Shown here: piece after piece, positions 12,862-22,034 of the stretch
How positions within the stretch are numbered: the stretch's first letter is position 1
Layout: each line of letters starts with the position of its first letter
Sequence record: OZ346212.1
Direction: 5' to 3' (one strand)
From: a phage
Length of the DNA stretch: 64,000 nucleotides
Notes under the pieces: model-generated
What the model saw: only the letters and a program-made list of their open reading frames with translations
Told to the model about the DNA's origin: nothing
Database searches by the model: none
Translations under genes and position numbers: made by a program

Positions 12862-13059
12862 ATGAACGCATACGGGATCAAAGTACGTCGCAACACTCGC
12901 CAGGTGGTCACCAATCAAGTGATTTGCCGGGTGGATGTAACCATCAACAACGGGCAAGGCCTTTATAAATTTCGTCGCGGTCATAGCTATACCCTGCAAC
13001 AGCTTAATCGTTGCGCCCTGACAAAAGGTCAGATCAACCACTGGTTTAATAAAAAATAA
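12862..13059 (+). CDS. hypothetical protein (65 aa)
   Basis: ATG 12862 after AAGAGGA; track ORF start 12784 is the promoter -35 TTG. Confidence 0.5.
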   Translation: MNAYGIKVRRNTRQVVTNQVICRVDVTINNGQGLYKFRRGHSYTLQQLNRCALTKGQINHWFNKK

Positions 13060-13062
13060 GTA

Positions 13063-13091
13063 TTGACATACAGTCAGACACCAAATACACT
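13063..13091 (+). promoter_or_regulatory. sigma70-type promoter (TTGACA-17-TACACT)
   Basis: -35/-10 hexamers 61 nt upstream of ATG 13124. Confidence 0.5.
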
Positions 13092-13123
13092 AAAAGCACA
13101 AAAGACACTAAGAGGATAAAATC

Positions 13124-13309
13124 ATGAAAACCACTACCTTTAATTTTGATAATGCAGACTTTTCTTTTTCTGATGTCAAGAACTGCCGCCGTGATCGTGG
13201 ATTTTACAAGGCTTATAATCTGGTGGGCCTGGACGATGACAATAATTTGCACGAAGTAGCTGAGATCCAGCTTGACAGATTGGACGGGAAAGTACTAAAA
13301 ACTTATTGA
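13124..13309 (+). CDS. hypothetical protein (61 aa)
   Basis: SD AAGAGGA then ATG. Confidence 0.55.
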   Translation: MKTTTFNFDNADFSFSDVKNCRRDRGFYKAYNLVGLDDDNNLHEVAEIQLDRLDGKVLKTY

Positions 13310-13310
13310 G

Positions 13311-13357
13311 TTTATTTTTAGATGGCCTTGACACCAGGGCCATCAATAAAGTAAACT
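13311..13357 (+). repeat. intergenic palindromic element, copy 1 (GATGGCC-TTGACACCA-GGCCATC)
   Basis: TTATTTTTAGATGGCCTTGACACCAGGGCCATCAATAAAGTAAAC; near-identical copies at 13933 and 17650, degenerate copy at 14266. Confidence 0.7.
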
Positions 13358-13509
13358 AACCACAGTTGAGCGGAAAAGGAGGCTTAAAGATGAGCACTAC
13401 ACGCCAGCACACAAAGGTAACCATCATCGTTTGCATCATTGGGTACATCCTGGCGCAAATGTTGATGGGTAGCGCCAACGGTGTCGCAAAATTTTTCTTA
13501 AACTTTTAA

Positions 13510-13537
13510 TTGACAAGCTAACTTAAATCGATATAAT
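13510..13537 (+). promoter_or_regulatory. sigma70-type promoter (TTGACA-16-TATAAT)
   Basis: Consensus hexamers about 79 nt upstream of ATG 13589. Confidence 0.6.
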
Positions 13538-13588
13538 AAGCACATAAACGGGAAAACTTCCCAGAACACACAAAAGGAGAAAAACACC

Positions 13589-13930
13589 ATGACTACTATG
13601 ACCGCCTCAGAAAAAGCTATGCAGATCGCTGAACTGAAAAAACAGATCGCAGACCTTGAGAATAAGATCGATAACTTTGAAATCGACGAGGACAAGTACG
13701 ACGAAAACTATGATGAATGGTTAGACGAGATCTACGGCGAAATTATGATCGGAAACATTTCTTTTCTTCCGTCGCGTATCCTCAAGGAGCTAGATCCTAT
13801 CGCTTACCGCTGCGGATTTAGCGACTACATCGACAGCCTGGATATTGAGGACGATGAAGAATACCAGGAATTACAGACAGAGTTAGAAGAAGCAAAAGAA
13901 GAGCTTGCGGAGCTGGAAGAAAACGAGTAA
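13589..13930 (+). CDS. hypothetical acidic coiled-coil protein (113 aa)
   Basis: SD AAGGAGA; D/E-rich with heptad-like N-terminus. Confidence 0.55.
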   Translation: MTTMTASEKAMQIAELKKQIADLENKIDNFEIDEDKYDENYDEWLDEIYGEIMIGNISFLPSRILKELDPIAYRCGFSDYIDSLDIEDDEEYQELQTELEEAKEELAELEENE

Positions 13931-13932
13931 GC

Positions 13933-13978
13933 TTATTTTTAGATGGCCTTGACACCAGGGCCATCAATAAAGTAAACT
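13933..13978 (+). repeat. intergenic palindromic element, copy 2
   Basis: Identical core to copy 1, directly after stop of 13589-13930. Confidence 0.7.
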
Positions 13979-14019
13979 TTATACTGTTAACACTGAACTA
14001 ATGCATAGGAGTTAAAACC

Positions 14020-14265
14020 ATGGCAGCACTAATCACCAAATATTATGCCCCTACCAACACCAAAAGCGCCCGTATCATGGTAAAAGGCTTCGGACGTAAA
14101 AAGGTGTACACCTGGGATTATGCCTTAGACACGGAAGACAACTACACCAACGCAATGACCGATTTTATTAATGAACTAAATAAGCAGATCTTGACAAGTT
14201 ATAAAGTGACCGATATTGCTTATATAGGTGAAGGCGGGATCTGTTTTGTAGGCATTGTGAAATAG
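14020..14265 (+). CDS. hypothetical protein (81 aa)
   Basis: SD TAGGAG then ATG. Confidence 0.55.
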   Translation: MAALITKYYAPTNTKSARIMVKGFGRKKVYTWDYALDTEDNYTNAMTDFINELNKQILTSYKVTDIAYIGEGGICFVGIVK

Positions 14266-14339
14266 TTATTTTTTCGGTGGTCCTGGTTGCAGGGCCATCT
14301 ATAAAGATAATTTATTAACACCATGAAAGGAGAAAGTAC

Positions 14340-14693
14340 ATGATCAGCGGGGCAAGTTTTATTATTGGCGCTATTGCTACGGCTTTAATTGTAAATAAGA
14401 TCCAGGATAAAAAGGAAAGAGGAAGTACCGCCCTTGCAGAATATCCATTTTGGGCATTCAACGATAACGAAGATTATATTATAAAGTATAAAAATAAAGA
14501 AGGTGACCAAGTAACACCGCGACCGATCCCGGCTTACAAAATGCAGGAAACACTATACCGCCTGGAGGCGGGTGGCGCAAAAATTGTAGACTTTTGGGGA
14601 TACGACCACACAGATCAGGAAGTTATAAAGCGCCGTATCCGGGCTATTCAGGCCAATATTGAAGTTAGCAAGGGGGGAATATATGAAAATTAA
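14340..14693 (+). CDS. hypothetical protein with N-terminal transmembrane segment
   Basis: SD AAAGGAGAAAG; hydrophobic N-terminus SFIIGAIATALIV. Confidence 0.55.
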   Translation: MISGASFIIGAIATALIVNKIQDKKERGSTALAEYPFWAFNDNEDYIIKYKNKEGDQVTPRPIPAYKMQETLYRLEAGGAKIVDFWGYDHTDQEVIKRRIRAIQANIEVSKGGIYEN

Positions 14694-14880
14694 TTTCGAG
14701 AAAATTGTAAAGCGCCCTCATGATTCCGAAGAGCTGCCAGAACGCCGCCAGCGTAACAATAAACTGAATAAGCCAAAAAGGTTTGGGAAGATCTGGCGTA
14801 ATCATTATGATCGTAAATTGCCCGGCCTACTTTTGGAACGTGAACGACAGGCAGAACGATACCGCCATAAAGACAAATAA
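14683..14880 (+). CDS. hypothetical basic protein
   Basis: Internal ATG 14683 after AAGGGGGG; R/K-rich. Confidence 0.45.
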   Translation: MKINFEKIVKRPHDSEELPERRQRNNKLNKPKRFGKIWRNHYDRKLPGLLLERERQAERYRHKDK

Positions 14881-14888
14881 CAACCAAC

Positions 14889-14917
14889 GCCCCGCCATTG
14901 TGCGGGGCTTTTTATTT
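14889..14917 (+). terminator. rho-independent terminator
   Basis: GCCCCGC-cattgt-GCGGGGC followed by TTTTTATTT. Confidence 0.7.
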
Positions 14918-15037
14918 CTATCCTACGAATAGCGCCCCTGGTTGGCCCTGTAAGCGCCAAAAAGGCCCCCACCTATGCAATCGCCCCTTTAACCTGAAAA
15001 CATCGCCCAGGGCCGTTTCATGGCGTTAAAAATATCA

Positions 15038-15065
15038 TTGACATCGTCAACAGGTTAGCTATACT
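15038..15065 (+). promoter_or_regulatory. sigma70-type promoter (TTGACA-16-TATACT)
   Basis: Hexamers 60 nt upstream of ATG 15098. Confidence 0.6.
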
Positions 15066-15097
15066 AACCACATCAAAGAGAGAAAGGAGTAAACGCC

Positions 15098-15358
15098 ATG
15101 CGTAAATTAAAAAATTTTGATAAAGTTGATGTTATCCTGAATAATTTTTACTACTGCAACAACAAGGCTATTTGGTGGCGTGATAGTTCCACCGATAAAG
15201 TCAGGGCGCGCTTTCTTCAGGGGCACTGGCAAGGCCGCCCAGTGATTAAAATCATGGGGCAATCGGTAGCGTTTAAAAATTGCCGCCGTGTTGATGACGT
15301 TGAGGAGATTTTAAACATTTTGCGCCACAATAATTTAAAAAATAGTGTTGACAAGTAA
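15098..15358 (+). CDS. hypothetical protein (86 aa)
   Basis: SD AAAGGAG then ATG. Confidence 0.55.
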   Translation: MRKLKNFDKVDVILNNFYYCNNKAIWWRDSSTDKVRARFLQGHWQGRPVIKIMGQSVAFKNCRRVDDVEEILNILRHNNLKNSVDK

Positions 15359-15375
15359 GCCTCAATAAGTATACT
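15348..15375 (+). promoter_or_regulatory. sigma70-type promoter (TTGACA-16-TATACT)
   Basis: Overlaps last codons of upstream gene; followed by leader hairpin GGCGGGAA-aac-TTCCCGCC. Confidence 0.6.
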
Positions 15376-15432
15376 TAAACACACAGGCGGGAAAACTTCC
15401 CGCCACTAACAAAGAAAATAGGAGAAAATATC

Positions 15433-16056
15433 ATGACCACCGTTAACATTACCGCAGGTTACAATTTATCTTTCGACGTGCTGACCGACGAACAAAAAGA
15501 AAAAGCCGTTGAAATGGTCCGCGAAAGAGAAGAACACAGCGGGGATAACTTTTTTGCAGAAAGTGTAATTGAATACTATAAAGAATATGTTTTTCCAGAG
15601 TATGGCCTTGAAGATACCGAAGTACATTGGTCAGGCTTTTGGTGCCAGGGTGACGGCGCGTCAATCAGTGCTGAAAACGTGGATTTAGAAAAATTTTTAC
15701 GTAAAGTAAAGGCCCTGACCAAGTTCCGATCAATTCGTCACTTGTTCGGCACAATGCACGATGGCGAGTTATCAGCCAGTGTTGAACGCGACAAGTACAG
15801 CCATTACAGCCATGAAAACACTGTAAGCGGGTACATTGATACCACTTGGCTAGATCTGACCGCCAAACAAGAAAACAAAGTGGAAGACCTGGAAGAACTG
15901 ATCACCGAGACGGTACGGGAGCTATCCCGCAAGGTTTACGTAGACCTGGAGGAGGCCTATCTAGAACAGTTCACCGCAGAAAACCTGATCGGCCTTATCG
16001 AGGCCAATGATTGGCGGTTTGATGTCGATGAATATGGTGAGATGACTTTTTCATAA
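15433..16056 (+). CDS. hypothetical acidic protein (207 aa)
   Basis: SD TAGGAGA; strongly D/E-rich. Confidence 0.6.
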   Translation: MTTVNITAGYNLSFDVLTDEQKEKAVEMVREREEHSGDNFFAESVIEYYKEYVFPEYGLEDTEVHWSGFWCQGDGASISAENVDLEKFLRKVKALTKFRSIRHLFGTMHDGELSASVERDKYSHYSHENTVSGYIDTTWLDLTAKQENKVEDLEELITETVRELSRKVYVDLEEAYLEQFTAENLIGLIEANDWRFDVDEYGEMTFS

Positions 16057-16146
16057 ATAAAGTGTTGCAATAACCTAAAAACCTGCTATATTAAAACTCA
16101 AGGGGGCAAGACGTTTGCCCCAACACAAAACAAAGAGGATAACATC

Positions 16147-16527
16147 ATGAAAAACACTACCAAGGCTATTGACACCGTTATGTTTAACCTGGTTACATTC
16201 CGTGAAGATATGAAAGATCTTCCTCGTGAAACAGTGTGCGACCATATCGAAAACTATCGCAAACTAATCAAAGAGTTGCCTTTAAAACGTGATCAATATG
16301 CGGCTAACGCCATGCTTAATGCCATGATCAAAAAGATGATCCAGTGTGATTTAACCCTGGCCTATGATTATGCAGGCGGTCGTTTTGCAGTATACAATCA
16401 GCCCGTGCCCGGTATGAGCACCACCGAAGAATTGCACGCGCTCAATCTAAAACAAGACGTGTGGGATAGTATGCCTCGCGTGGTGGTATGGGTAGAAAGC
16501 GGAAAGATTTACGGCGATAATTTTTAA
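16147..16527 (+). CDS. hypothetical protein (126 aa)
   Basis: SD AAGAGGA then ATG. Confidence 0.55.
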   Translation: MKNTTKAIDTVMFNLVTFREDMKDLPRETVCDHIENYRKLIKELPLKRDQYAANAMLNAMIKKMIQCDLTLAYDYAGGRFAVYNQPVPGMSTTEELHALNLKQDVWDSMPRVVVWVESGKIYGDNF

Positions 16528-16536
16528 TCAGGTAGC

Positions 16537-16563
16537 AGGCGGCATATTTGCCGCCTTATTGTT
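16537..16563 (+). terminator. rho-independent terminator
   Basis: AGGCGGCA-tatt-TGCCGCCT followed by TATTGTT. Confidence 0.6.
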
Positions 16564-16591
16564 AATCAGAACTGTAAAAGAGGTACATAGA

Positions 16592-16963
16592 ATGGAATTT
16601 ATTATTTTGGCTGTATTGGTTGCCTTGTTTAACGCCTGGATCGCTGGCAAGATGGGAAGATCCGCCTTTTTATGGTTTATTATATCTATTTTCCTGGGGG
16701 TGGTTGCAACTATTGTATTGGTTATCCTTGCAATTGTTGACAAGGGGAATAATAGAAAGGGTAAAGTATTTTCAGACCTGTACGACGCTCAAACGTTTGT
16801 CAACGCCTATTATAGTGATCTTCCAGTCTCCCTACGTTGCAGCCTTGCACAACAGGTTTTCGATGAAGCTAAAACCAGAGATCACGCCCATGAGATTTGT
16901 TTAACTGAGGCGGATCGCCTATTTGAGAGGAATAGAAAATATGTGGACCAGCCGTTTAAATAA
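16592..16963 (+). CDS. hypothetical membrane protein (two predicted TM helices)
   Basis: ATG 16592 after AAAGAGG; IILAVLVALFNAWIAG and FLWFIISIFLGVVATIVLVILAIV hydrophobic stretches. Confidence 0.55.
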   Translation: MEFIILAVLVALFNAWIAGKMGRSAFLWFIISIFLGVVATIVLVILAIVDKGNNRKGKVFSDLYDAQTFVNAYYSDLPVSLRCSLAQQVFDEAKTRDHAHEICLTEADRLFERNRKYVDQPFK

Positions 16964-17306
16964 TGCCACGTTAATTAACCCCTTTAGTAAAGATTTGAAG
17001 CCAGCCGCCTGGCGGGATGGATTCAATAACGAACGCTTTATTTTCAGGCCTGATCTTGAGGAATTTTATAACAATGGATCGAACAACAGCGGAGATAATT
17101 TTTCTTGTGGTGTGTGTCGTGATAGGACTCCTGGGGGCCATTGTAGATCGCGTCACTACTACCAGAAGGAAAGGGGGAGACGATGACAACCAAGGATAAG
17201 CCCCGCACCGATAAGGTGCGCCGTGTTATGGTATGGCTTGAGATCATCGCCCTTGAAATATTGTTAGGCGTAGGGATGTATTTTATCTCTGTAAGTAACT
17301 GATAAC

Positions 17307-17338
17307 GGCCCCCGATCCCTGGGGGGCCTAACTTTTTT
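17307..17338 (+). terminator. rho-independent terminator
   Basis: GGCCCCC-gatccct-GGGGGGCC followed by TAACTTTTTTC. Confidence 0.65.
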
Positions 17339-17445
17339 CAAAAAATTTTTCTTCCGGGGTGTTGCAATCCGGTCCTGAATATGGATAATAACAATCAACG
17401 GGGAAACATCCCCACCAACACAAAAACCAGAAAGGAGAAACAAAA

Positions 17446-17646
17446 ATGAGCAACAATATCCGCGTTATTAACTTCAAAAAAGAAGAAAAAATTGCCGTGC
17501 TGATTGACGGTCAAGAAATCTTCAAGGGCGACTATGAAGATCATCAAACGGCGATTAGTATCACTCGCGTGATTGGTTACCATAATTTTTACCCCCAAGG
17601 CGCTGAGGCGGCGGTTAAACGAATCAAAGAGATTGTAGGCCTGTAA
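17446..17646 (+). CDS. hypothetical protein (66 aa)
   Basis: TTGCAA/GATAAT promoter, leader hairpin, SD AAAGGAGA. Confidence 0.55.
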   Translation: MSNNIRVINFKKEEKIAVLIDGQEIFKGDYEDHQTAISITRVIGYHNFYPQGAEAAVKRIKEIVGL

Positions 17647-17649
17647 AAT

Positions 17650-17695
17650 TTATTTTTAGATGGCCTTGACTCTAGGGCCATCAATAAAGTAAATT
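17650..17695 (+). repeat. intergenic palindromic element, copy 3 (TTGACT variant)
   Basis: TTATTTTTAGATGGCCTTGACTCTAGGGCCATCAATAAAGTAAAT. Confidence 0.7.
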
Positions 17696-17739
17696 TAAAC
17701 CCTGTTAAAATACCACGCAGTTAACAAGGAGTAATGATC

Positions 17740-18039
17740 ATGTTTATCCAGGCTAATAATCTTTATTTCTTTGATGGTCAGATCGTAGATGGTGTGGAAG
17801 TGGAGATCACTGGGTGCCCTGGTGGTCAGGCTATGACTTTTCGGAATAATGCCTTTGATGATTCTCATATCGTTATGAGAATGGAAGTTACAAAGCTGGA
17901 CGACAAGAAAACGCTCATTGACTATTCCGTGAAAGATCATCCAGACTACCACATGATCTATGGTGATTTGTGCATTGTTGACCGTGACAAGGTGGGCGGC
18001 ATTGTGATCGCTATTGTGAACGATGTTTTCTCTGTATAG
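17740..18039 (+). CDS. hypothetical protein
   Basis: Second ATG (17740) has better spacing from SD AAGGAG than track start 17734. Confidence 0.55.
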   Translation: MFIQANNLYFFDGQIVDGVEVEITGCPGGQAMTFRNNAFDDSHIVMRMEVTKLDDKKTLIDYSVKDHPDYHMIYGDLCIVDRDKVGGIVIAIVNDVFSV

Positions 18040-18097
18040 TTCCGGCAAATGATGCAAAATAAGGCCCCTAGCAGGGCCTACAGCGATATAATCACAT

Positions 18098-18130
18098 AAA
18101 GGCCATGCAACCGCATGGCCTTTATTATTT
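18098..18130 (+). terminator. rho-independent terminator
   Basis: AAGGCCATGC-aacc-GCATGGCCTT followed by TATTATTTT. Confidence 0.7.
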
Positions 18131-18217
18131 TGGCGTTACAGCGGCCCCAAGGCGCTTAAAAATTTTTTAAAGAAGTACTTGCATCAAGCCCTACAATATG
18201 GATAATAGGACGTGTCA

Positions 18218-18231
18218 GGGGGGGGGGGGGG
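18218..18231 (+). repeat. homopolymeric G tract (14 nt) in a 5' leader
   Basis: G14 between the TTGCAT/GATAAT promoter and the SD of gene 18271. Confidence 0.8.
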
Positions 18232-18270
18232 AGGCCCCAATCATTAACCGGATAGATAGGAGTTAAAACC

Positions 18271-18555
18271 ATGGCTATTGTTACCGCTGGCGATGTAGTA
18301 GAAATGGAAGCAAAATACTTAAAAGCGGGTATGCATATCCTACGCAACGATCTTGAACTGGTCCTGACAATGGTTGACTATAACCCAGGGCAAGATTATC
18401 CAAGTGTTGACTACTTTTTTGAGTATGTTGATGAAGAGTTGAAAGAGGATGAGGCCTATTGCGGTGAGTTCTGCAACTTCTTTTGTCCTGATGAGGTTGT
18501 AAAGGTTATCTATCAACCTGGCGTAGCTTTCCCGCTGCACGCTATCAATAAATAA
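18271..18555 (+). CDS. hypothetical protein (94 aa)
   Basis: SD TAGGAG then ATG. Confidence 0.55.
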   Translation: MAIVTAGDVVEMEAKYLKAGMHILRNDLELVLTMVDYNPGQDYPSVDYFFEYVDEELKEDEAYCGEFCNFFCPDEVVKVIYQPGVAFPLHAINK

Positions 18556-18559
18556 ACCT

Positions 18560-18590
18560 GGCGGGGCCGAAAAGGCCCCCGCCTGAAATT
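18560..18590 (+). terminator. terminator-like hairpin
   Basis: GGCGGGGCC-gaaaa-GGCCCCCGCC directly after stop; weak U-tract. Confidence 0.45.
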
Positions 18591-18617
18591 ATGAAAAATA
18601 AAAAGAGGCAAACTATC

Positions 18618-18851
18618 ATGATGGAACAAATTAAACGCGCTGAGGCTATTAATGGCAATGTAATCTATTTTGTCAGCAAAAACGAAAAAGGCGTACCCTA
18701 TGCGGCGGTAATAGTACAGCCTGACGGCGATTATTGGTGCACTGTGTACGGCGCTTATTCTTTTGGGCGTCCAGTGCATGATAAAATTTTGAAAGTAGCG
18801 AACCCTACCGGGAAAAATATTACAGCAGAAAAATTTTTTGAAAAAAGTTGA
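18618..18851 (+). CDS. hypothetical protein
   Basis: ATG 18618 after AAGAGG; track ORF starts 18591. Confidence 0.5.
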   Translation: MMEQIKRAEAINGNVIYFVSKNEKGVPYAAVIVQPDGDYWCTVYGAYSFGRPVHDKILKVANPTGKNITAEKFFEKS

Positions 18852-18927
18852 CATGACCATATAAAACTGTAGTATATAAATCAAAGGGGGCAACAAGCCC
18901 CACCAACCACAAAGAGGATAAAAAATC

Positions 18928-19107
18928 ATGGCTATTATTGCAAAGACCGAGATCGTAGGCTTAGATTCTATTCTCCTCGCATATGAGGAAGCTATAGAAA
19001 TGTATGTGGTTTCCTATGGTGAGTATATCCGTGAATATGAATCTATTGATCTAGCTTTTGAATGTTATATTCGCCAGGTTAATAAAGCGTACGATGATTA
19101 TCGTTAA
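18928..19107 (+). CDS. hypothetical small protein (59 aa)
   Basis: TTGACA promoter, leader hairpin, SD AAGAGGA, ATG 18928; just below track size cut-off. Confidence 0.45.
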   Translation: MAIIAKTEIVGLDSILLAYEEAIEMYVVSYGEYIREYESIDLAFECYIRQVNKAYDDYR

Positions 19108-19198
19108 AATAGTTTGACAACAAACAACCATCTAACAAAGCATAATACATAAGGTGGTAGAATGATCCGCCACCCGGAACAAAGAAGAGGTAAACACC

Positions 19199-19444
19199 AT
19201 GAAAAGCAATAAAGGTTATAACGGTTACAAAAACAAAACTCATTGGAATGTAAGCCTTTGGATTAATAACGATGAGTCATTGTACCGGTTGGCCCAAGGA
19301 TTTATTAACGCTAATGCTAATCGTAATGATGCGGCGCGGGATATGATGCTTTTTCTGGAGCTAACCGGACAAGATAAGACCCCGGACGGCTTCAAGTACA
19401 GCACTACGGCGATCCGTGCCGCGATGGTTGGAATGAAACACTAA
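19199..19444 (+). CDS. hypothetical protein (81 aa)
   Basis: TTGACA promoter at about 19117, SD AAGAGG. Confidence 0.55.
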   Translation: MKSNKGYNGYKNKTHWNVSLWINNDESLYRLAQGFINANANRNDAARDMMLFLELTGQDKTPDGFKYSTTAIRAAMVGMKH

Positions 19445-20436
19445 AAGCACATAGCCGCCAGATCTCAGAATTTACGTACGCTCACCAGTCTATAGCCTGC
19501 TAAGTATTTATTCCAACCATAGAATAACGGAATAGTCAATACCTGCATAAAATAATTATTCGTGTAAACTGCATAACATAAATCGGCTAGGATGTCAACA
19601 TTTTTCGTAAACAGCTCGAAATTATAACGGTGAGTTATAATAAACAGAGAAATCTTTAGTCGTCTAATGTTTACTGTACATTACTATACTGACTGGAATC
19701 ATTAGATGACTAAGAGAAAGATAAGAAATCATTAACAATGCAATTGTTTTATTCGTAACAATAAGGCAACTATGCAAACGGATGGCATGGCGCGACGGAG
19801 TCGCGACATAATATAAAAGCAGTAACCATCACCCCCGTGATAGTTTGTCTGCAAACTATTAATCAGATCATAGTTGCCTTGTATTTAGTTAATCATGACA
19901 TAACAAGCAAGGCAACTATAGATCTGCTAATAGTTGCCCTGCTTTTATATTATGTCATAGATTATTAGCCTGTTAATTGTTAGTCAGTCAAATCAACAAC
20001 GTTATCATTTCAGTCTTTATTGTTGTTGATCGTTATTGTTATCATGCAAACGAATGGCATGGCTTATCATTTTTGAGTAAACAATCTATACGTGAACAGT
20101 GAGGCAAGTTAGCAGCCGATAGATTAGATATTAACCTGCAGACTTCTGACCGTCTAGACGTCTAAACGCCCACACAACAAGGATTATACATACAATACTG
20201 AATGTAAACAGGGCCGCAAAAATGCTACCATACCACAGATTGTAAATTTTTCATGCAGCACTTGACAAAGAGGAGAACTTAATTTTATCAGGATAGGCAA
20301 GAATGTCAAGGCATGACTGCTCACTAAACAAGCAAACAGTCATGTGTGGGAGGTAAGTGATTGTGGTGGTAGGAAATTTAGTTGAAAGATGTGTTATAGG
20401 TGCTTCCAGCACTTTAGCCGGGCAGCTAATTGTGTG
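19445..20436. other. convergent-transcription junction, AT-rich with hairpins and direct repeats
   Basis: No ORF; palindromes ATAGTTGCCTTG...CAAGGCAACTAT, CGCGAC-gga-GTCGCG, ATAGTTTG-tctg-CAAACTAT; direct repeat ATGCAAACG(G/A)ATGGCATGGC twice. Confidence 0.5.
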
Positions 20437-21981: not shown

Positions 21982-22034
21982 CTCAAATCTCCTTCATAGA
22001 TAGTAAAGAGGGGCCCAAGCCCCCCTCTTTGTCA

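Follow-up and report, generated by a model that had tools for sequence, protein, structure and literature searches.

The run of 14 consecutive G residues at positions 18218–18231 of the window (the whole 64,000-nucleotide stretch of phage sequence record OZ346212.1 that was analysed; all features described below are on the + strand) is a hot spot for mutation and not a proven genetic switch, and it belongs to two known kinds of element, the hypermutable homopolymer and the 5' leader hairpin. The explanation that we favour, and consider reasonably probable, is that the tract represents a long allele at a hot spot of slippage within a promoter-proximal stabiliser hairpin, in the leader of an accessory early gene, and that it arose as a by-product and does not act as a switch.

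A first-pass annotation of this DNA had reported a 14-nt G run, and a direct reading of the sequence confirmed it, with G at all of 18218–18231 in the order GTGTCA-G14-AGG-CCCC-AATC. The wider sequence around the tract reads ...GGATAAT AGGACGTGTCA GGGGGGGGGGGGGG AGG CCCC AATCATTAACCGGATAGAT AGGAG TTAAAACC ATG.... Seven overlapping matches to G8 were found in the 64-kb window, every one of them inside the tract, while dinucleotide shuffles gave a mean of 0.78 and none of 100 shuffles reached 7. The tract is also the sole homopolymer of at least 7 nt in the window. Runs of A and T reach 6 nt (15 and 36 instances, respectively) and C runs also max out at 6, whereas the base composition predicts about 7 A runs and about 7 T runs of at least 7 nt, of which 0 were observed. 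Given the excess of G8 over the shuffles and the lack of other long homopolymers, the tract is genuine in the sequence, well beyond chance and exceptional for this genome. As a side observation, 50 kb of rV5 (L023, 85000–134999) contains just two T7 runs and one T10 run of this length class, and the near-absence of homopolymers of at least 7 nt in both the window and rV5 suggests a genome-wide avoidance of slippage-prone runs in Vequintavirus.

The window derives from an rV5-like myovirus (genus Vequintavirus). When 1.8 kb around the tract served as query, 173 phage records matched, with a best identity of 95.5%, and the closest relative over 22 kb is phage Murica (96.3%). Exact-protein look-ups with four proteins of the window retrieved only relatives at 91–99% identity, none with G14. 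The site lies within the long early region of small hypothetical genes, which in rV5 runs from gene 238 down to gene 164 (PMC3606486). An intrinsic terminator with a 13-bp stem followed by a T run was found by the terminator scan at 18096–18133 and is conserved in a four-way alignment. The preceding transcription unit ends there, and the gene at 18271 therefore requires a promoter of its own. A sigma70-type promoter was predicted at the appropriate place, with TTGCAT at 18179–18184, a 16-nt spacer and GATAAT at 18201–18206, and both hexamers were identical in all 57 of the relatives' sequences inspected. An A/T tract (TTAAAAATTTTTTAAA, 18156–18171) directly precedes the -35 box, where an UP element would lie. 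Its run lengths are A5T6 in the window, A6T5 in most relatives, A6T4 in C7 and T11 in navn (L038), which makes it a second slippage-prone spot of the same promoter region.

The transcription start is usually 6–8 nt after the -10 box, and the start for this promoter was accordingly predicted at 18212–18214. The G tract is separated by 11 nt from the -10 box on its 5' side and by 26 nt from the Shine-Dalgarno (SD) sequence AGGAG (18258–18262) on its 3' side. This SD is conserved in relatives and lies 8 nt ahead of the ATG at 18271. The stretch from the end of the hairpin to the SD is a linker (AATCATTAACCGGATAGAT, 18239–18257) with a minority-base fraction of 0.065. The earlier placement of the tract in a 5' leader, between the TTGCAT/GATAAT promoter and the SD of the gene at 18271–18555, was thus upheld, and the promoter itself is conserved.

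The gene, identified from the ORF list and by homology, encodes a 94-aa protein (18271–18555) that is a homologue of rV5 gp171/ORF176. The protein matches phrog_12610, a family of unknown function; the Pfam search gave no above-threshold match, the PDB search gave no relative, and homologues were confined to Vequintavirus-type contigs. Its AlphaFold2 model had a pLDDT of 58 and was therefore too poor for a fold search. The leader and the gene were present together in 117 of the 173 related records and missing from about one third of them, and the gene is accordingly regarded as accessory. Directly after its stop codon there is another, strong GC hairpin, GGCGGGGCC-GAAAA-GGCCCCCGCC (18560–18583), without a T run, whose 3' arm shows C-to-T (G-U wobble) or G-to-T changes in relatives. 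Further downstream, the alignment with rV5 breaks up at 19450–20270 of the window, a segment that adjoins the ORF-free gap of the rV5 annotation (about 104.0–106.6 kb) between the converging units ending at genes 163 and 164.

Leaders homologous to that of the 94-aa gene were collected from GenBank phages, IMG/VR, ENA and JGI metagenomes, NCBI assemblies and Logan assemblies, giving 54 distinct records including the window. The homologous spot in the 53 other records consists of a G run, a short loop and a C-rich run, for example G6-CGG-C5 in rV5, G4-CGG-C5 in Gotham, G6-AGG-C5 in Murica and G6-AGG-C4 in D1. The 3' arm is a C run 4–7 long in haplotype A, to which the window belongs, and CCTCC in a second haplotype (haplotype B), which has the form Gn-CGGTGAGG-CCTCC. 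By RNA folding, all 26 of the alleles first collected formed a GC stem of 4–6 bp despite their differing sequences, the stem variants including GGGGG/CCCCC, GGGGGC/GCCUCC, GGAGG/CCUCC (C7) and GGGGGG-UUAU-GCCUCC (navn). According to the folds of all alleles, the G tract in the window is the expanded 5' arm, on the non-template strand, and 18232–18238 comprises the AGG remainder of the loop and the CCCC 3' arm. Pairing is retained while the stem sequence changes, both among the 26 alleles of the leader hairpin and at a sister hairpin at 17400, where an extra G-C pair is found in L025, L029 and L030; the register of the G run is ambiguous, which makes the alignment of the leader hairpin arbitrary. 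As read from these compared sequences, the hairpin is the conserved entity, and the G run is its 5' arm, predicted to pair with the downstream C run, a point that the first-pass annotation had not made. The stem itself is weak in the nearest alleles, with 4 bp and about -8 kcal/mol, and its z-score is 0.0 against shuffles of the same G/C-rich composition. The G6 allele folds into a defined hairpin, while the G14 allele has a minimum free energy (MFE) structure of frequency 0.08 and an unpaired centroid.

Two other roles for the leader hairpin were considered and rejected. The hairpin is not an intrinsic terminator, since its tail AAUCAUUAAC (AAUCAUU) has no U run 3' of the stem, and the site was absent from the terminator scan. 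An upstream small ORF could be read in haplotype B and in C7, which have GTG or ATG in the hairpin loop, but haplotype A has no in-frame start codon, so this ORF is not conserved. Where it can be read (L005–L007, L011–L019 and L039, the last being C7), it spans 10–12 codons, has the form ..PPIIN..RS and stops at a TAA inside the main SD. Taken together, the 5' arm and the loop look like an extended SD (GGAGGUGAU in C7), and the 3' arm CCUCC looks like an anti-SD.

The leader hairpin is not alone in the early region. Four sister promoters nearby are laid out in the same manner. Each has a 16-nt spacer, and 10–12 nt separate its -10 box from a hairpin whose 5' arm is G-rich; about 20 nt of A/C-rich linker then lead to an SD and an ATG. 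The nearest module (17362–17413) has TTGCAA-16-GATAAT, 10 nt and the hairpin GGGGA-AACA-TCCCC, followed by an A/C-rich linker and an SD (fold z -2.55). The second (16065–16121) has TTGCAA-16-TATATT, 10 nt and GGGGCAA-GACGT-TTGCCCC (z -3.25), and the third (15348–15404) has TTGACA-16-TATACT, 10 nt and GGCGGGA-AAACT-TCCCGCC (z -6.13). The fourth (13510–13562) has TTGACA-16-TATAAT, 12 nt and GGGAA-AAC-TTCCC (z -2.59). The sister hairpins, with z-scores from -2.6 to -6.1, thus fold much better than their shuffles. A scan of the window for a promoter with a downstream GC hairpin returned 5 modules, against a mean of 0.6 and a maximum of 3 in 40 dinucleotide shuffles. Four of the five lie at 15.3–18.2 kb on the + strand, each just 5' of an ORF, and the weaker fifth is the one at 13510. 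In 5/5 modules the stem or G run begins 10–12 nt after the -10 box, which is about 2–5 nt from a start predicted 7 nt after that box; with such a start the hairpins would be 5'-terminal.

A position directly 3' of the -10 box is typical of operators, and the same layout recurs at five promoters. Both facts would fit a GC hairpin that serves as a DNA or RNA protein-binding site (an operator or roadblock) or as a transcription attenuator, with the G run as part of the site. However, the five hairpins have no sequence in common beyond a G-rich arm, on the 5' side in all five, and a C-rich 3' arm. Furthermore, the relatives differ freely in the sequence of loops and stems yet retain the pairing, an indication of structure as opposed to recognition of sequence. 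For an attenuator, the U run expected after the stem is lacking here (AAUCAUU) and at the sister hairpins, which are likewise not terminators, and for either role the Rfam scan of 13000–19500 (E ≤ 1) gave no family for the hairpins, its one match (16078–16149) being sub-threshold. We therefore give this explanation only a very slight chance.

The G run in the leader varies widely. Its longest uninterrupted length is 3 in 1 record, 4 in 2, 5 in 18, 6 in 19, 7 in 6, 8 in 3 and 9 in 2, and lengths of 11 (Logan assembly ERR11560377), 14 (the window, second longest of the 54) and 17 (phage V18) occur in one record each. There are thus ten distinct lengths in 54 records, mostly 5–6. Different lengths are found on one and the same flanking sequence: n is 5, 6, 7 or 14 in GTGTCA-Gn-AGG-CCCC, 4, 5 or 6 in AGTACGTGTCA-Gn-CGGCCCCC, and 5 to 9 or 11 in GTGTC-Gn-CGGTGAGGCCTCC. 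Differences of one or two bases occur within each of these three backgrounds, which are otherwise identical. Such length changes, recurring on fixed haplotype backgrounds, indicate repeated independent slippage. The claim of the first-pass annotation that the tract is hypermutable by slipped-strand mispairing is therefore supported by comparison, through both the ten lengths and their recurrence on three haplotype backgrounds. The mean minority-base fraction is 0.25 at 18218–18238, and 0.022 in the promoter, 0.024 from the SD to the ATG and 0.026 at the start of the ORF. Variability in the hairpin segment thus exceeds that in the promoter, SD or ORF about 10-fold.

Similar variation, on a smaller scale, was found in other hairpins of these phages. 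The G and C runs of the sister hairpins and of a terminator at 17307–17328 also differ by 1–2 nt among relatives. The hairpin of the 17362 module is kept in relatives with changed loops and with G4 to G6 or C4 to C3 changes, and the G run of the 16065 module is one base longer than in rV5. Run-length instability is therefore general to GC hairpins in these phages, with the G14 site as the extreme case. The terminator hairpin at 17307–17328, GGCCCCC-GATCCCT-GGGGGGCC, has G6 in the window and G4–G5 and C4–C5 in relatives. Among the records examined, GenBank MG065635–MG065690 (for example L009, L015 and L039) are entitled 'UNVERIFIED: Campylobacter phage'; they are rV5-like Vequintavirus sequences, 83–95% identical to the window, and are probably coliphages mislabelled by host.

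Within its own haplotype the window is an outlier. The haplotype closest to it, that of phages D1 and D# (loci L025, L031 and L034), is identical except for G6 against G14, the other records on this background stop at G7, and G14 is 7 nt longer than any of them, so that the lengths do not form a smooth distribution. In pattern scans of IMG/VR, JGI metagenome contigs and GTDB genomes, no allele with at least 9–10 G turned up at this locus. These results would be in line with a sequencing or assembly artefact, as the first-pass annotation had already allowed, in which the phage, like its relatives, truly carries about G6–G9 and the extra G residues come from base calling or from a consensus across the GC-rich hairpin. 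The V18 allele bears on the same question. In V18 (L008, NC_041937.1, 448–470), G17-CTCC has the same length as G8-CGGTGAGGC-CTCC, as if C, T, A and C had all been replaced by G in a G8 allele of haplotype B, and it may be either a base-calling artefact or a homogenised tract. This match in length implies that poly-G miscalls may occur at this hairpin, and because the V18 run looks like a base-calling artefact it is weaker as independent support for long alleles.

However, the signature of homopolymer errors is absent from the rest of the window, where 45 single-base gaps were counted in 37.6 kb aligned to rV5, and the ORFs are intact. Among the G-run indels relative to rV5, the window is longer once and shorter twice; there is thus no bias towards over-calling of G, and systematic over-calling in the assembly was ruled out. 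Because G14 is 8 nt longer than the nearest allele, it is not a substitution-type miscall of the kind suspected in V18. Long-read platforms tend to shorten homopolymers, not to lengthen them. Furthermore, long runs were present at the same site in an independent Logan assembly (G11) and in phage V18 (G17, itself possibly miscalled). On balance, an artefact is the less likely reading of G14, and we consider it unlikely.

The preferred explanation can be formulated as follows. RppH and RNase E require 5' ends that are single-stranded, and E. coli mRNAs are for this reason stabilised by secondary structures at the 5' end (PMC3997798); homopolymers of at least 6 nt act as hypermutable loci in phages (PMC12633550). 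The leader hairpin is one of at least five promoter-proximal hairpins of the early region. Most likely it shields the mRNA 5' end from RppH/RNase E-dependent decay, and its function is thus probably that of an mRNA 5' stabiliser. The G-rich 5' arm of this short GC hairpin, about 4–6 nt from the predicted 5' end of the transcript, would be the hot spot of replication slippage, the stem-forming G and C runs themselves rendering the site mutable. Most genomes carry G5–G7, and occasional expansions such as G9, G11, G14 and G17 would be tolerated because the gene is accessory and the stem can still form in some register. Expansion of the G run is, accordingly, probably a mutational by-product and not a designed switch.

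The first-pass annotation had also suggested that the downstream gene could be phase-variable. In the classical ON/OFF sense this is not supported, since the tract lies between the -10 box and the SD, outside both the promoter spacer and the ORF, and a change in its length alters neither spacing nor frame. Should expansion have an effect, a graded drop in expression would be predicted, and two routes may be envisaged. By the first, the defined hairpin would give way to a diffuse ensemble, in which the 5' tail, unpaired or G-stacked, is longer. By the second, a G-rich non-template tract beside the promoter would favour blockage of transcription by R-loops. One in vitro study describes a more than 10-fold loss of yield for T7 RNA polymerase, via R-loops, when a G-rich non-template tract lies 9 bp from the promoter (PMC5499740).

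The proposal that the tract can form G-quadruplexes stood in part. A canonical three-tetrad quadruplex needs 15 nt, and the corresponding regular expression (G3+N1-7 repeated four times) fails on GTGTCA-G14-AGG-CCCC, in which G14-A-GG does not provide it. The two-tetrad pattern does match, a two-tetrad or bulged form is therefore possible, and the G17 allele of V18 matches the three-tetrad pattern. Consistent with this, ViennaRNA with G-quadruplex energies predicted a two-layer quadruplex for alleles of G9 and longer, including G14, and a three-tetrad form for G17.

These predictions would also suit a true contingency locus or expression rheostat, in which a hypermutable G run of the leader, kept in place by selection, spreads the levels of the 94-aa early protein across the population, through hairpin register, 5'-tail length or the formation of an RNA G-quadruplex or R-loop. 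Several observations are compatible with such a role. The genome is otherwise depleted of runs of at least 7 nt, and the tract is its one long homopolymer. The length of the tract has changed recurrently on several backgrounds with a long right tail, and its location, 3' of the predicted transcription start and 5' of the SD, is one at which RNA structure can have an influence. Precedents are available both for poly-G or contingency loci in phages (PMC12633550) and for a leader G repeat with gradual tuning (PMC8295292). However, 46 of the 54 records are at G3–G7, a narrow mode that is expected from mutation and drift around a stem needing 4–6 G. Other hairpins of these phages show the same kind of variation in their G and C runs, so the behaviour is not specific to the G14 locus, and the tract lies outside ORFs and promoter spacers alike. 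In addition, the gene has no known function and is dispensed with by about a third of the related records, and no candidate for a C/U-rich RNA partner acting in trans emerged from the window, whose only C run of 6 or more is at 22020, or from the Rfam scan. A selected rheostat is thus, in our judgement, decidedly improbable. Were it true, bet-hedging would operate via mRNA output rather than protein frameshifting, and the genome-wide avoidance of homopolymers of at least 7 nt would mark the G14 site as a deliberate exception.

The reading of the tract as a slippage by-product in a stabiliser hairpin can be compared with several known systems. Homopolymers of at least 6 nt have been described as contingency loci in T2/T4 (PMC12633550), and the same source reports, in its account of Sorensen et al. 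(2021), poly-G tracts in receptor-binding genes of Fletchervirus. The tract resembles these loci in being a poly-G run of a lytic phage and in changing length from one close relative to another, as slippage would give. Unlike the Fletchervirus and T2/T4 tracts, which lie in ORFs and act ON/OFF by frameshift, it is non-coding, is located in a 5' leader and frameshifts nothing. Put in terms of what characterises a contingency locus, it has a slip-prone length (about 6–8 nt or more) and differs in length among related genomes, but it is 3' of the -10 box and so does not occupy a switch position, that is, an ORF or the -35/-10 spacer.

A closer parallel in position is the leader of H. pylori tlpB, where a variable G repeat targeted by the sRNA RepG sets expression gradually and not ON/OFF (PMC8295292). 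Both are homopolymeric G repeats of variable length in an mRNA leader. However, the tlpB repeat is bacterial and a C/U-rich loop of the sRNA binds it in trans, whereas the phage tract has as its only evident partner the C run in cis, 3 nt downstream.

The phage hairpins themselves resemble the 5'-terminal stabilising stem-loops of the ompA and papA mRNAs (Emory et al. 1992; Bouvet and Belasco 1992), as these are summarised in PMC3997798. Here, too, a short stem-loop a few nucleotides from the predicted 5' end is followed by an unstructured leader and an SD, and the hairpins recur at several promoters with conserved pairing, as for stabilisers of the ompA/papA type. They differ in that the phage stems are just 4–7 bp, the 5' end is a predicted one and the effect on half-life is putative. 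Similarly, the tract shares with the R-loop tracts of PMC5499740 a G-rich homopurine run on the non-template strand, no more than about 10 bp from the predicted start. The effect described there is that of T7 RNA polymerase in vitro, whereas the phage tract is a 14-nt run that E. coli RNA polymerase would transcribe in vivo.

The repeated design of a promoter, a 5' hairpin and an A/C-rich leader in the early region is a candidate natural mRNA-stabilising cassette. The phage contingency loci described so far frameshift ORFs, and a leader rheostat, if tract length does tune expression, would extend this idea. If the tract is real, the leader hot spot would provide a cheap strain marker and would call for caution with consensus assemblies, and rV5-like phages used for therapy and typing would possess a non-coding hot spot at which almost any two isolates differ.
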